Shown here one piece after another: positions 3,243 through 10,867 of a stretch of 10,867 nt of DNA. Under the pieces are notes generated by a model. That model searched no databases, was not told where the DNA came from, and was given only the letters and a program-made list of their open reading frames with translations. This DNA comes from a virus (Duplodnaviria > Heunggongvirae > Uroviricota > Caudoviricetes > Autographiviridae), in IMG/VR virus record IMGVR_UViG_2609459797_000001. One strand, written 5' to 3'. The position numbers and the translations under genes are program-made. The first letter of the stretch is position 1. Each line of letters starts with the position of its first letter.

Positions 3243-4238
3243 TTACGCAGATTGTCGGAAATTGATAACGCAATCAGGACGACGCAGCCCAACGTTGAAC
3301 AGGCGATATGAGTCCATCACCATCGTCATTTCGCGTTCATCATCCCACTGGCGATTAATGACGCTCTGCGCTTCGACCGTCAACAGTACCGAGGAAGGTT
3401 TAAACAGCGTCGCCCTCGTCAGCGCTTCCTCTGCGGTAACGTCATAATCAGCGCCCAGTTCATGCCCGGTAATGGCTTCCTGCGGGTAACTATTCAGCTC
3501 GATAACTCGCACCCCAGCGACATAGCCAACACGACGCCATGCGTAATCGTTGCCACTATCCCGGCTGTAACGGACGTTCATCAGCTTCTTATGTTCCATC
3601 AGGATGCTGAACCAAGCCGGGTCGATAAGCAGTACCAACTCCGCCACCGGAATATCTTTCTCAGTCAGGAATCGATTAACAGCAGCTTTAATAGCGCTAA
3701 CCAGCTCATTCGCGGCGTCTTCTTCGCTCCCCGCTGTCAGGTCGAGCGAGACAACGTTATCCGTCAACGGGTTAAACGTTGGTTGCAGTGTCGGCGGTGG
3801 TACAAAGTCAGTCGCTTTGATTAGCTGGATGGCGTGCGCTTCGTCGTAGAATTTAGCGTGAGCAGTACCGATATTGCGGCTCAGCTCTGCGCGAAAGGTG
3901 GGTGCAGTCCAGTCATCCTGATAGTCAATGGGGATGCGGATATAGCTCAGCGTATCCACAGAGATAACCAACTTGTCCGACTTAACGGCGGTAGGCTCCA
4001 GCGATTGCCCTGCTGTTCTGCCCTTCACCTCCAGATCACCACTCAGGCGATCAATGCGGTATTGGTTGCTGGCTTTCAGCGGCCTGTATGTAGACAGCCT
4101 CTCGGCCAGAAATACGGATTTGGACTCTAAACGGGTCTGGACATCCCGGTCATAAGCCTCGATGTGAATATCATTGTCGGATTCCACCCCGCCATAATGT
4201 GGGCGAAACAGATCGGGACTGTACGAAGTATCAGCCAT
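3243..4238 (-). CDS. Hypothetical 331-aa protein; motif pattern resembles HK97-fold major capsid protein of the T7 gp10 type (unverified)
   Basis: ATG at 4238 with GGAG 8-9 nt upstream. Ungapped, position-matched motif resemblance to T7 gp10 as I remember it: VLIYDIED versus IRIPIDYQDD near residue 100; ALTK...VP...DRVFYCDPDSYSAIL versus RFLTEKDIPVAELVLLIDPAWFSIL near 185-215; NVMGFEVVEVP versus YVAGVRVIELN near 240; KYAMG..GLRPE versus SYRLFNVGLRRPD near the C-terminus. Recall-based, needs profile confirmation. Confidence 0.75.
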   Translation of the reverse strand: MADTSYSPDLFRPHYGGVESDNDIHIEAYDRDVQTRLESKSVFLAERLSTYRPLKASNQYRIDRLSGDLEVKGRTAGQSLEPTAVKSDKLVISVDTLSYIRIPIDYQDDWTAPTFRAELSRNIGTAHAKFYDEAHAIQLIKATDFVPPPTLQPTFNPLTDNVVSLDLTAGSEEDAANELVSAIKAAVNRFLTEKDIPVAELVLLIDPAWFSILMEHKKLMNVRYSRDSGNDYAWRRVGYVAGVRVIELNSYPQEAITGHELGADYDVTAEEALTRATLFKPSSVLLTVEAQSVINRQWDDEREMTMVMDSYRLFNVGLRRPDCVINFRQSA

Positions 4239-5686: not shown

Positions 5687-5926
5687 TTATGCAACCTCTT
5701 GTGATGTAACTCGGCGGTGCGCCAGTTCAAGTAAAAGCATGTGCGCATGTACGCATCGGGCAGGAATCATCTTCTGTCCGTGGTACGCTTTGCCGAGATC
5801 TTGTCTGTCGATCTGGTACACACGAGCCAAGTCGATTTGACGAAGATTCAAGGCGTCAGCAATGAATTTCAGTTGTTGCCCGCAATCAGCCGCGCGGCGT
5901 GGCTCCATTAAAATGATGGTGCTCAT
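5687..5926 (-). CDS. Small XRE/Cro-like helix-turn-helix protein (start placed at the internal ATG with a good RBS)
   Basis: Segment LKFIADALNLRQIDLARVYQIDRQDLGKAYHGQKMIP has the XRE-type HTH pattern. The ATG at 5926 has GAGG about 9 nt upstream, whereas the listed start at 5968 overlaps the upstream gene. Confidence 0.55.
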   Translation of the reverse strand: MSTIILMEPRRAADCGQQLKFIADALNLRQIDLARVYQIDRQDLGKAYHGQKMIPARCVHAHMLLLELAHRRVTSQEVA

Positions 5927-7604: not shown

Positions 7605-9449
7605 TCAGAGGAAGCGGGAGATGTAACCCCAGTTAGCATTGTGGGGCTGGTACAACGCCGCCAAATCATCAGGCGCATCCCCCAGCGCCAACGATGACCA
7701 GAGTATGAAAGCACGGGCAGGTTGACCATCGCGCCCGGCACGGCCAACCATTTGCACCAAATCGGGCAGGTCTTCCGGAACATAAGTGACAATTACGTTA
7801 CGCACGTCAGAAATATCGGCTCCGAGGCCAAAGGCTTTGGTCGCCACCAGAACAGCGCCGGGCGTGCTGGAGAACCACTCTGCGTTGGCGTGCCGCTGAT
7901 CGCGGCTCAGTCGCTCAACGTCAGAATGATAAGGCCGGGCACGGTCTCCCAGTTCGTTGAGATACGCATACAGCATCTTTATGCTGTCCACCATCACCAA
8001 TGTCTTTTCATTCTCCGGCAGCGCATTGACCAGACCAACGGCAGCCCGGCGCGGAGTTACGCATTGCTGAGCAGGAATAAGCTGGATGTTTTCACGGGCA
8101 GCACTGGCGCGGTAGGTGAGGAACTCGCCACGACAGCCAAGCTCTTTCATCAAGCCAGACTCATCACCTTTTCGCAGGGTCGCAGTAAACGCGCACCGCT
8201 GAGCATCCGGGAAGGCATTTTGCAGGGTGTGCTTCATTGCAGGGAAAGCGTCCCGGAACTCCCATTCATCAACGGTGTGCACCTCGTCAATGATAAATCT
8301 GTCCGCACCAGCGGCCATCAGCGCGGCAAGCACCTGACTACCCGGCACCAGATGTTCAGGCGAAACGACTGCGACGCGGAAAGCACCAGCAGCCAACCCC
8401 GCAAGTTGCTGCGCATTACGCCGCTTCGGTAGTTTATCGCCAAATGCCACAGCGTGAACGCCAGCCTCCCTTAACTGCTGTAGCACCTGCTGCTTGATAG
8501 TGTTCGTCGGCACGACAATAACGGTCATACCTTCGCCAGCATCAGACTCAAATTGCAGGGCATAGGTGAATGCAGCCGTCTTTCCGTACCCGGTCGGCAG
8601 TACGGCCAACATATCGCGGTCACGGGCAAACACAGCGGCGGCCACGTCGAGTTGACCGGGTCGCCAGTCATGACCATCTGGCGGCGGTAACGGTACGAAT
8701 GCCGGGCGGTCGCATTGCTCCAGCTCACGGAACCTGTACGGCGCTGTAACCAGCGGCGGGATGGACGGCGGCAGGTCAGCGCCGCCAACGTCACAGTGTT
8801 GGTTCTTCGTGTTGAAATTGTCCTTAGTGGATTTCAGCTCACTGCCCCATAGCTGGTGAAACTCCGGGCTATCCCCGAGGGTGTCAAAGTCAGCGTGGCG
8901 CATCGCCTCCAGCTTGCTCATGCCACGATTGATGCGGCGGATGGTCTTCTCATCACAAATCAGAAACTCGCGACAGGCTTTAAGAAAGGCGTTTTGCCCC
9001 GTGGTCGCTTCCGGGATGGCGTGCTCACGCGGTTTCAATGCGGCATCGTCTACGCGAACACCGGGGAAATCTGGTGGCAGCGGCTCGGCGTACCGGGCAG
9101 GCTTTTTGTTTAGCCACATCACCAGCTCAGCGCGGCGGCAGTGGATTGCATCGCCCGGCTGGATAATCTGGCGCAACCCTGCATCAGCGCGGCGGGCGTG
9201 TGTCTTGCGTCCGATTCCGTTAGCCTCTTTCCATTCTCGGAACGACATAACAGAATCGTCAGCGTTAAAGTAAAACTCTTGTGACTCCGTATTAAACGCA
9301 GCCTGTATGGGTTTACGCTTTACAGGACATTGCTTGTTACGCGATACAACTATCTTATCCGCAACCAGTTGCTGAGCATCCGCAGGCGCAGTGTTCAGCG
9401 GTTCGGCGTCAGCGGCCAGCGCAAGCAGGCGGTTCAATCTCGTGGGCAT
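7605..9449 (-). CDS. SF2 DExH/RecQ-like helicase (614 aa) with a roughly 270-aa non-helicase N-terminal extension
   Basis: Helicase motifs in order: LPTGYGKT (motif I), VVPTNT (Ia), DEVH (II), FTAT (III), VGRAGRDGQ (VI). ATG at 9449 with GGAG 9 nt upstream. Confidence 0.9.
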   Translation of the reverse strand: MPTRLNRLLALAADAEPLNTAPADAQQLVADKIVVSRNKQCPVKRKPIQAAFNTESQEFYFNADDSVMSFREWKEANGIGRKTHARRADAGLRQIIQPGDAIHCRRAELVMWLNKKPARYAEPLPPDFPGVRVDDAALKPREHAIPEATTGQNAFLKACREFLICDEKTIRRINRGMSKLEAMRHADFDTLGDSPEFHQLWGSELKSTKDNFNTKNQHCDVGGADLPPSIPPLVTAPYRFRELEQCDRPAFVPLPPPDGHDWRPGQLDVAAAVFARDRDMLAVLPTGYGKTAAFTYALQFESDAGEGMTVIVVPTNTIKQQVLQQLREAGVHAVAFGDKLPKRRNAQQLAGLAAGAFRVAVVSPEHLVPGSQVLAALMAAGADRFIIDEVHTVDEWEFRDAFPAMKHTLQNAFPDAQRCAFTATLRKGDESGLMKELGCRGEFLTYRASAARENIQLIPAQQCVTPRRAAVGLVNALPENEKTLVMVDSIKMLYAYLNELGDRARPYHSDVERLSRDQRHANAEWFSSTPGAVLVATKAFGLGADISDVRNVIVTYVPEDLPDLVQMVGRAGRDGQPARAFILWSSLALGDAPDDLAALYQPHNANWGYISRFL

Positions 9450-9875: not shown

Positions 9876-10123
9876 CTCTTTAGTAGTGATCTTCATCCAG
9901 TGATTTGGATTTAACTCAGGCGCAACAGGCAATGCAGCGGGATAGCGCGAGGGCGGGCTTGTGGTCTCATCTTCCCACAGTAGTAACCCTTATCGGTCGG
10001 TAGCCTTCCCAATATAGTAGCTTTCAAGTCAAGAATTCTATCCGGGGCTTGCCTTCCCTTTGTAGTCACTTTCATCCACGCATACCCCGGACAGCCCTTG
10101 TGGCGTCTGGTGCGACAGGCAAT
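9876..10123. repeat. Iteron-like imperfect direct repeats in the noncoding region upstream of the helicase operon
   Basis: CTCTTTAGTAGTGATCTTCATCCA (9876-9899) versus CCCTTTGTAGTCACTTTCATCCA (10056-10078); GGCGCAACAGGCAAT (9919-9933) versus GGTGCGACAGGCAAT (10109-10123); CTTGTGG twice; CAATATAG twice; TAGTAG-type hexamers four times. Confidence 0.4.
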
Positions 10124-10252
10124 TTCAGGTAGGTGTATTAGGGATGTGAAATTGGTTCTTGGCGTAGCTCTTTCCTACAATATAGACACTTTTAAATTTA
10201 TTAATAAATGCAGTCAGTTAAACGGTTATCTTTATTACCTATAACTTTCACA

Positions 10253-10274
10253 GATCAATAGATTAAAATTGATC
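10253..10274. promoter_or_regulatory. Palindromic operator-like site GATCAAT-N8-ATTGATC containing two GATC (Dam) sites
   Basis: Perfect 7-bp inverted repeat with an 8-bp AT-rich spacer, located just upstream of the promoter-like hexamers. Confidence 0.35.
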
Positions 10275-10287
10275 GGAATTATCAGCT

Positions 10288-10325
10288 TTAAATTTCTTGA
10301 CAGCTATTTGTATAATGGTTTTAAG
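10288..10325 (+). promoter_or_regulatory. Rightward sigma70-like promoter candidate (overlapping alternatives)
   Basis: Perfect TATAAT at 10311-10316 with TTAAAT 17 bp upstream (10288-10293); alternatively perfect TTGACA at 10297-10302 with TTTAAG 17 bp downstream (10320-10325). AT-rich upstream region. Confidence 0.35.
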
Positions 10326-10329
10326 AAGT

Positions 10330-10470
10330 TGTATCGGAGTGAGCGACTGGCAGTGAGCGTAGCGAACGGTAAGCCAGTCGGCGAAGAACGAAGAGTATGA
10401 GATGACTTGTCATCGAATACGATGAGTGATTGAGCGCTACGAACGAAGATACGCTGTATAACAGTTAGAA
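10330..10470 (+). other. Hairpin-rich untranslated segment downstream of the promoter candidate; possible small RNA or leader, interrupted by IS1
   Basis: No ORF longer than a few codons. 8-bp stem CGACTGGC/GCCAGTCG (10344-10351 and 10373-10380); two mutually exclusive hairpins sharing TCATC (GATGA-CTTG-TCATC at 10401-10414 and CATCG-AATA-CGATG at 10411-10424); GAACGAAGA repeated at 10386-10394 and 10441-10449. Confidence 0.2.
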
Positions 10471-10527
10471 CAGTTAACTAGCTGAATATGAATAATACAT
10501 TTAATATTTATCTGGATTAGTATTTTC

Positions 10528-10867
10528 GGTGATGCTGCCAACTTACTGATTTAGTGTATGATGGTGTTTTTGAGGTGCTCCAGTGGCTTCTGTTTCTATC
10601 AGCTGTCCCTCCTGTTCAGCTACTGACGGGGTGGTGCGTAACGGCAAAAGCACCGCCGGACATCAGCGCTATCTCTGCTCTCACTGCCGTAAAACATGGC
10701 AACTGCAGTTCACTTACACCGCTTCTCAACCCGGTACGCACCAGAAAATCATTGATATGGCCATGAATGGCGTTGGATGCCGGGCAACAGCCCGCATTAT
10801 GGGCGTTGGCCTCAACACGATTTTACGTCACTTAAAAAACTCAGGCCGCAGTCGGTAACCTCGCGCA
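10528..10867 (+). mobile_element. IS1 insertion sequence, 5' portion (left terminal repeat and insA); continues beyond the window
   Basis: GGTGATGCTGCCAACTTACTGAT at 10528 onward matches the IS1 end repeat as I remember it; insA starts 55 nt inside, as in IS1. Same orientation as the IS1 fragment at 1-392. Confidence 0.9.
10583..10858 (+). CDS. insA: IS1 InsA (91 aa)
   Basis: Translation [43 protein letters not shown]...LKNSGRSR recognised as IS1 InsA from memory; complete ORF with stop at 10856-10858. Confidence 0.9.

Follow-up and report, generated by a model that had tools for sequence, protein, structure and literature searches.

The window analysed here is the whole 10,867-nucleotide stretch of viral DNA held as IMG/VR record IMGVR_UViG_2609459797_000001, and it represents most of a phage-satellite-like island with a long operon on the minus strand. 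Near its right end, in non-coding DNA, lies a perfect palindrome with a GATC in each arm, followed by a perfect TTGACA and a perfect TATAAT. The first-pass annotation had drawn attention to this arrangement, and both direct reading and a pattern search returned the same coordinates for the palindrome, the GATC sites, the two hexamers and the 8-bp gap between them. Taken alone, the palindrome and the hexamers are ordinary features of a promoter region. Comparison with related islands suggests that they are probably the control region of a small transcription unit, in which a sigma-70 promoter would drive the synthesis of a structured RNA of about 200 nucleotides. This conserved non-coding RNA, predicted from the aligned sequences, appears to be previously undescribed and had been overlooked in the first reading. 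The features concerned are:

10253 to 10274, no strand: perfect dyad GATCAAT-N8-ATTGATC, with GATC at 10253 and 10271 and its centre at about -59.5 relative to the predicted start
10287 to 10292, plus strand: weak -35-like hexamer TTTAAA, 18 bp upstream of TATAAT, picked out by the promoter scan (10/12) and by alignment with the distant relative L020 on the -10
10297 to 10302, plus strand: perfect TTGACA, 8 bp from TATAAT, inside the spacer of the promoter defined by homology and invariant in relatives
10311 to 10316, plus strand: -10 hexamer TATAAT, 34 nucleotides before the conserved CAGTGAGCG loop, with a predicted start near 10323
about 10323 to 10527, plus strand: predicted structured non-coding RNA of about 200 nucleotides, from folding, compensatory changes and pair counts
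10344 to 10351 paired with 10373 to 10380, plus strand: helix H1
10350 to 10368, plus strand: apical motif of H1, GCAGTGAGCGTAGCGAACG, with GCGTAGC at 10357 to 10363 as the core of the GCGNAGC mini-hairpin class
10384 to 10389 paired with 10426 to 10431, plus strand: helix P2
10395 to 10398 paired with 10417 to 10420, and 10401 to 10406 with 10409 to 10414, plus strand: helix H2
10433 to 10436 paired with 10452 to 10455, plus strand: helix H3
10494 to 10498 paired with 10520 to 10524, then a U run, plus strand: A+T-rich terminator-like hairpin

The key to the promoter is L020, a distant relative whose helicase is 48% identical to that of the window. At the same place and on the same strand L020 has a canonical promoter, TTGACA-17-TACAAT, matching the consensus at 11 of 12 positions, and 34 nucleotides separate the last base of its -10 hexamer from CAGTGAGCG. 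The same distance separates TATAAT in the window from CAGTGAGCG at 10351, and because of this TATAAT, which conforms to the sigma-70 -10 hexamer and is the positional homologue of TACAAT in L020, is identified from the alignment as the -10 hexamer, with transcription predicted to start near 10323. The slot occupied by the consensus -35 in L020 holds TTTAAA or TTAAAT in the window and TTTAAT in most relatives; of these, TTTAAA matches the consensus at four of six positions and stands 18 bp upstream of the -10. The first-pass annotation had argued that TTGACA and TATAAT, being so close together, would each need a weaker partner hexamer. For TATAAT the promoter scan does give such a partner, TTTAAA, but no hexamer downstream would make an acceptable -10 for TTGACA: those at a distance of 16-18 bp (TTTTAA, TTTAAG and TTAAGA) lack the key A2 and T6, and the promoter scan returned no such pair. 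At 8 bp, TTGACA is too near to TATAAT to serve with it. The position of TTGACA inside the spacer of the promoter defined by homology also argues against its being a working -35. Comparison of the spacers, CGATTTTTGTGGTTCGA in L020 and GCTATTTG in the window, suggests instead that a deletion of about 9 bp may have brought an ancestral -35 TTGACA too close to the -10.

By itself the palindrome is not statistically significant. Perfect inverted repeats with arms of 7 bp and a spacer of up to 20 bp number 16 in the window, as against 14.6 ± 3.8 in shuffled sequences, and, though only 0.06 occurrences of the exact dyad pattern would be expected, that pattern was picked after the fact. The window has far fewer GATC sites than expected (19, against about 42), and two of the 19 fall within the dyad; by our estimate there is nothing statistically remarkable in two GATC sites lying 18 bp apart. 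It would seem to be through conservation alone that the feature rises above chance. The dyad arms, both hexamers and all the spacings are identical in each of the 22 related loci holding the conserved block in which they lie, which come from E. coli, Enterobacter, Trabulsiella, Citrobacter koseri and metagenome contigs, and variation inside the dyad is limited to two spacer positions. The spacing from dyad to promoter is likewise constant, while the Citrobacter koseri locus L146 tolerates the loss of 12 bp just upstream of the dyad. In this locus the block seemed to end on the left at the dyad, but this was an artefact of the alignment, the true difference being that deletion. The block itself extends from about 10184 to 10527 (about 340 bp), its left edge being marked by the last of a series of CTTCCC-N4/5-TAGTAGC repeats. 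Among the islands that carry it the block is 90-100% identical, whereas their helicases share only 72-93% identity and to the left of 10184 the DNA is scrambled.

The first reading had proposed rightward transcription, facing away from the leftward operon, and this is supported by the homologous promoter of L020 and by the structured region downstream, with its compensatory changes and its wobble pairs on the plus strand. Comparison between islands thus supports all three: the homology of the promoter, the covariation of the helices and the strand specificity of the wobbles. The RNA is predicted to run from a start near 10323 to a 3' end near 10527. The region downstream of the promoter has a fold energy of -50.8 kcal/mol on the plus strand and -35 kcal/mol on the minus strand. 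Among six distinct sequences 88.7% of cells are paired, compared with 79.4% in shuffles, and seven pairs have changed on both sides, a count equalled by one in 500 shuffles. H1 is paired in all six sequences and accounts for three pairs changed on both sides. Its stem is found as CGACTGGC/GCCAGTCG, CGATTGGC/GCCAATCG or CGACTAGC/GCTAGTCG, and in L020 an unrelated stem, CGAAACGC/GCGTTTCG, is built round the same loop. P2 occurs as AAGAAC/GTGATT or as AATGAT/ATCAAT, and the upper part of H2 has two compensatory pairs in L020. In the terminator-like hairpin, AAUAC...GUAUU with its U run becomes AAUGC...GUGUU in L004 and L005; the U.G and G.U wobbles of this stem in L004, L005 and L012 fit the plus strand only, as they would be A.C mismatches on the other.

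Rfam was searched with the window, the intact island and 20 metagenome loci: nothing reached the gathering scores, and what appeared when E values up to 10 were allowed was at chance level. The phage and plasmid collections contained nothing matching the whole block, and scans of IMG/VR with the promoter or hairpin-2 patterns gave nothing, or one chance match within a gene. No credible open reading frame was found in the gap between the operon and the next gene: a 43-residue frame opening with TTG at 10269-10400 begins upstream of the predicted transcription start and was rejected. A reading of GGCGAAGAAC as a K-turn was also discarded, since variant B has Watson-Crick pairs where the tandem G.A pairs would be.

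The dyad and the promoter are situated in a gap of about 1.4 kb between the gene of a small serine recombinase and the minus-strand operon, and the RNA would be part of a conserved module within this gap, which lies between the serine invertase gene and the replication and packaging operon. The full extent of the gap is seen in L009, which is the same island as that of the window but without IS1, and in which about 1.4 kb of non-coding DNA separates the recombinase gene from the operon. Further features of the window are:

3243 to 4238, minus strand: major head protein (PHROG 267, E = 1e-69)
5687 to 5926, minus strand: orf79, a 79-residue XRE-type helix-turn-helix protein and candidate binder of the dyad (AlphaFold2 model, pLDDT 90)
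7605 to 9449, minus strand: superfamily 2 (SF2; DEAD/Helicase_C) helicase
9972 to 10189, no strand: four iteron-like repeats CTTCCC-N4/5-TAGTAGC, starting near 9972, 10005, 10053 and 10172, between the dyad and the first genes of the leftward operon
10528 to 10867 (340 bases), plus strand: what we take to be the left end of IS1, directly after the terminator-like hairpin

As judged against L009, this presumed IS1 separates the RNA gene from the remaining 750 bp or so of non-coding region and from the invertase gene. The operon further encodes several small proteins, an HNH nuclease and endonuclease VII. We could recognise no portal, protease or large terminase, though a possible small HTH_23 protein was seen, and the island thus lacks the full set of capsid, portal, protease and terminase that marks the capsid-forming PICI (cf-PICI). 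The island fits none of the described P4-like, PICI, cf-PICI or PLE layouts. Related islands are present in 4 of 5426 complete E. coli genomes and also in Trabulsiella, Enterobacter, Citrobacter, Cronobacter and Kosakonia. They adjoin tRNA genes and have a tyrosine integrase at the far end, with variable cargo on the integrase side: a cytosine methyltransferase together with an NmeDI-like enzyme, AbiTii, or Eco29kI.

Class I activators and UP-like elements act upstream of the -35, whereas the places expected for a repressor are the -35, the -10 and the start. The dyad, centred at about -59.5 and so upstream of the -35, is therefore a doubtful operator for repression of the rightward promoter, which is the role the first-pass annotation had given it; its position suits an activator, or a site controlling the divergent operon, better. 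That it is a regulator-binding site is a plausible prediction. Placed as it is before a poor -35, the dyad may be recognised by a dimeric DNA-binding protein, which when bound could help RNA polymerase in the style of a class I activator or could couple the promoter to the divergent operon; simple repression of the rightward promoter by such a protein would be less likely. The best candidate would be orf79, whose predicted fold most closely matches those of restriction-modification controller proteins, ClgR, HipB and 434 Cro. When every island protein was compared between loci with and without the block, orf79 was the only one whose identity tracked it: it is 95-99% identical in 10 of the 11 block-bearing loci and 36-61% identical in five of the six block-less loci where an ortholog was found, and neighbouring proteins show no such pattern. 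It is also far more conserved than its surroundings, the neighbouring genes being just 55-90% identical across the same islands. The helix-turn-helix protein at 5687-5926 had already been put forward in the first reading, and with its XRE fold and its tracking of the block the choice is a reasonable one, though the tracking is imperfect.

Several observations weigh against the picture of a regulated promoter and its RNA. The dyad is statistically ordinary, and the conservation of its arms does not appear specific to it, since the whole block is at least 90% conserved. At the corresponding place in the subfamilies L016-L018 no promoter could be detected. The folding z-score is modest (-1.6), the comparison involves only about six distinct RNA sequences, which are mutually related, and the last hairpin is too A+T-rich to pass a terminator scan. 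As for orf79, in L142 the block is present and yet the protein is 65% identical and has a different recognition helix, while in L143 the block is replaced by a different sequence and yet the protein is 99% identical; a strict link between protein and block is broken by these two loci. Lastly, no exact complementarity of 11 nucleotides or more was found between the RNA and either strand of the island, and RNAduplex energies against the island are barely beyond those of shuffled sequences. An antisense or trans target inside the island was rejected on these grounds, which also leave a P4-like mechanism within the island unsupported. Because there is no complementary target within the island, the RNA would more likely act outside it, on the helper phage or the host, or else through a bound protein. 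Overall, this is a real and conserved rightward promoter region, which on the comparative evidence would drive a novel structured RNA or, less likely, fire an origin.

It is possible, if on the unlikely side, that the dyad has no function of its own and is a chance palindrome in A+T-rich DNA, kept by a promoter or UP-element block that has spread recently or is strongly constrained. The window has about as many palindromes of this size as chance would give, and 14 unchanged arm positions carry no statistical weight in a block whose identity is 90% or more. L020 lacks the dyad at the matching position and has just AATCATTGATT about 25 bp further upstream. A palindrome without function would not, however, so readily account for both changes being confined to its spacer, for the fixed spacing to the promoter where a 12-bp deletion just upstream is tolerated, or for the recurrence of ATTGAT half-sites in the control regions of distant relatives.

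A second alternative concerns the whole block, which might be part of a replication origin; on balance we consider this unlikely. The iterons would then bind an initiator or the helicase, the A+T stretch with the GATC-dyad would unwind, and the promoter would provide transcriptional activation or an R-loop. The hairpins, H1 above all, would be single-strand initiation signals on the displaced non-template strand and would recruit host priming, the compensatory changes serving to keep DNA hairpins. The four CTTCCC-N4/5-TAGTAGC repeats directly adjoin the A+T-rich block, analogous repeats exist in relatives (L002), and about a dozen CCTTAGTA repeats occupy the same place in the distant relatives L014 (about 3450-3830) and L141. 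No leftward sigma-70-like promoter was found at the iteron-like repeats. Among the island's proteins there is a helicase and no recognisable primase. H1 folds as DNA also (-11.4 kcal/mol, z = -2.7) and presents GCGTAGC at its apex; there is a degenerate second copy of the apical motif, ATTGAGCGCTACGAACG, at about 10429-10445, and the motif is retained in L020 on a completely different stem. GCGNAGC and GCGNNAGC define a class of extraordinarily stable mini-hairpins; members of it are found where primase starts in phages G4, St-1 and alpha3, and also in ssiA of RSF1010 (PMC13037366), and we verified these sequences. The F-G intergenic region of phiX174 has AAGCGAAGCGCGG, and four to five of eight weak matches to the motif in a phage collection are intergenic sites of Microviridae. 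These matches, on the other hand, have E values of 0.3-4, which is about chance. Beyond its 7-nucleotide core the motif is unlike hairpin I of G4 or alpha3, so that the wider similarity to known primase-recognition hairpins expected of a G4-type signal is missing, as is a strand-specific placement: in small strand-biased viral contigs it lies six times on the coding strand and six times on the other. Both the wobble pairs and the fixed distance from promoter to loop are more natural for an RNA, and the GATC is not kept in L020.

The motif at the tip of H1 is found well beyond these islands. A search for GCAGTGAGCG(N)TAGCGAACG, 19-20 nucleotides in length, gave more than 120 metagenome matches at the least (loci L021-L140), and its 17-nucleotide core, AGTGAGCGTAGCGAACG, gave 63 matches in viral contigs from very different habitats (loci L150-L211). 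The excess over chance is suggestive, with a few tens of chance matches estimated per scan from collections whose sizes are not known. A perfect adjacent stem of 8-21 bp accompanies about 16% of the metagenome matches listed, compared with 1% of controls, and the sequences of these stems differ. The motif forms tandem arrays in L053 (five copies of 39 nucleotides), L065 and L045, is sometimes present as inverted pairs about 180 nucleotides apart, and is also seen within purine-rich runs of GAGCG and AAGCG repeats. The predicted loop of the mini-hairpin is the very place where one extra base is tolerated; the metagenome variants with the extra base fit the GCGNNAGC class, GCGTTAGC being the sequence of St-1 and alpha3. 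Rfam has no family that matches the motif, and the literature searched did not contain it. Among the metagenome occurrences listed no shared neighbouring protein was found, nor any bias in the orientation of the motif relative to genes.

In five loci (L024, L027, L047, L122 and L136) the motif hairpin lies 47 nucleotides upstream of a transposase whose sequence, on reading, suggests the IS110 family; this would presumably put the hairpin in the 5' non-coding part, the region that encodes the bridge RNA. In three others (L086, L105 and L127) the motif is about 400-500 nucleotides upstream of transposases that by a similar reading we assume to be of the IS3 family. L076 and L120 carry the same hairpin locus, with a 20-bp stem, and in them the motif loop is oppositely oriented with respect to the flanks; this suggests inversion of the loop between the stem arms, or ambiguous assemblies. 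A degenerate copy of the H1 motif is found as well in a second purine-rich element, with a consensus near CCGAGCATCRCAGMGAG...GAAGCGCAGC, which is kept in every island subfamily, even at 47% helicase identity. This element lies at about 8735-8800 on the minus strand of L009 and is present in L016, L014, L020 and L141; in the source of the window it is beyond IS1. It resembles a group of metagenome loci (L028, L088 and others).

These settings, namely enterobacterial satellites, the intergenic regions of microviruses, the 5' non-coding part of IS110-family elements, the neighbourhood of IS3-family elements and tandem intergenic arrays in very different bacteria, bring to mind a broader interpretation that is doubtful as yet: the H1 tip, AGTGAGCG(N)TAGCGAACG, could be an undescribed nucleic-acid module, widespread among selfish elements, that recruits a universally conserved host factor such as the priming machinery or RNA polymerase. 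The promoter would then serve to expose or express the module, as RNA or as a DNA strand displaced by an R-loop, and the block would be a transcription-fired origin or a decoy for the host factor. If the recurrence of the apical motif in widely differing bacteria and in small viruses holds up, it may point to a general protein-binding or priming module of mobile elements.

It is improbable that the dyad is the binding site of the small serine recombinase of the island, a Hin/Gin-like invertase, acting there in regulation or dimer resolution. The recombinase does match a DNA-invertase PHROG family, and its own promoter region contains ATCAAT repeats, either as GGTGTCATCAAT twice, 50 bp apart, or as GTATCAAT-N19/20-ATTGATAC, although one ATCAAT near the recombinase gene is the tail of the recombinase terminator. 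At the centre of the dyad is a TT, and its ATCAA is similar to the hix half-site TTATCAAAAACC. At 22 bp, however, it is 2 bp shorter than the hix-type sites, and it lacks the hix/gix arrangement of a 26-bp dyad with 12-bp half-sites and a 2-bp core in two inverted copies. A second copy of the dyad is absent, and with it any invertible segment: in the whole of island L009 no further copy was found with up to 9 mismatches in 27 positions, nor did an invertible segment or second recombination site turn up. Moreover, two unrelated types of recombinase (28% identical) co-occur with an identical dyad, and the 191-residue type is also found without it. The serine recombinase is therefore a weaker candidate binder than orf79. 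A Dam-methylation-sensitive, repressor-controlled switch, in which methylation of the two GATC sites would set the binding of a regulator, as the first-pass annotation envisaged, is very improbable: both GATC sites, one per arm, are invariant in all the close relatives, the hosts are Dam-positive enterobacteria and GATC is avoided elsewhere in the island, but there is a single dyad with no competing alternative of the pap or agn43 kind, it stands upstream of the -35 instead of covering the promoter, its GATC sites, 18 bp apart, are out of helical phase for SeqA, and L020 has no GATC upstream of its homologous promoter.

Some features of the region are shared with known systems. Like pap and agn43, it has GATC within a putative regulator site upstream of a promoter, one in each arm; those systems, unlike the single dyad of the window, use competing sites or three GATC over the promoter, together with Lrp or OxyR, and here GATC is not conserved with the module. 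The tip of H1 is a GCGNAGC mini-hairpin as at the origins of G4, St-1 and alpha3, and the order of iterons, A+T-rich DNA and then hairpins recalls RSF1010 oriV. Only the 7-nucleotide core is common to H1 and the G4-type signals, however, and the window has a sigma-70 promoter at a fixed distance from the hairpin, which is missing from those signals. The promoter combines a good -10 and a poor -35 with a dyad centred some 60 bp upstream, and in this it is laid out like those that depend on class I activators, such as CRP at -61.5. The half-sites of the HipB operators, TATCC-N8-GGATA, are spaced 8 bp apart, as are those of the window dyad, and restriction-modification controller proteins are, like orf79, whose best structural matches they provide, small regulators of XRE fold. 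In contrast to these systems, the window has a TTGACA inside the spacer that is without counterpart in them, and its association of protein and site is imperfect and a prediction only.

With regard to RNA-based control, the CI RNA of P4 is cut from the leader of the operon that it controls and pairs with repeated targets there, whereas the RNA of the window would be divergent from the operon; it is not leader-derived, and complementary repeats of the seqA/seqC type were not found in the operon. Neither CI nor SviR, the small RNA of the Vibrio PLE satellites that is reportedly a precedent for a regulatory RNA encoded by a satellite, is related to it in sequence or through Rfam, and the likeness to SviR is one of kind only. 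What all three would have in common is that a small structured non-coding RNA is made in the control region of a phage satellite from its own or an early promoter. Accounts of satellites usually place them under the control of protein repressors, and to our knowledge RNA-based control is known only for P4 and PLE (action on the helper phage). If the reading of the window as a promoter with its structured RNA is true, an RNA at the heart of this control region would be a third case beside P4 and PLE.

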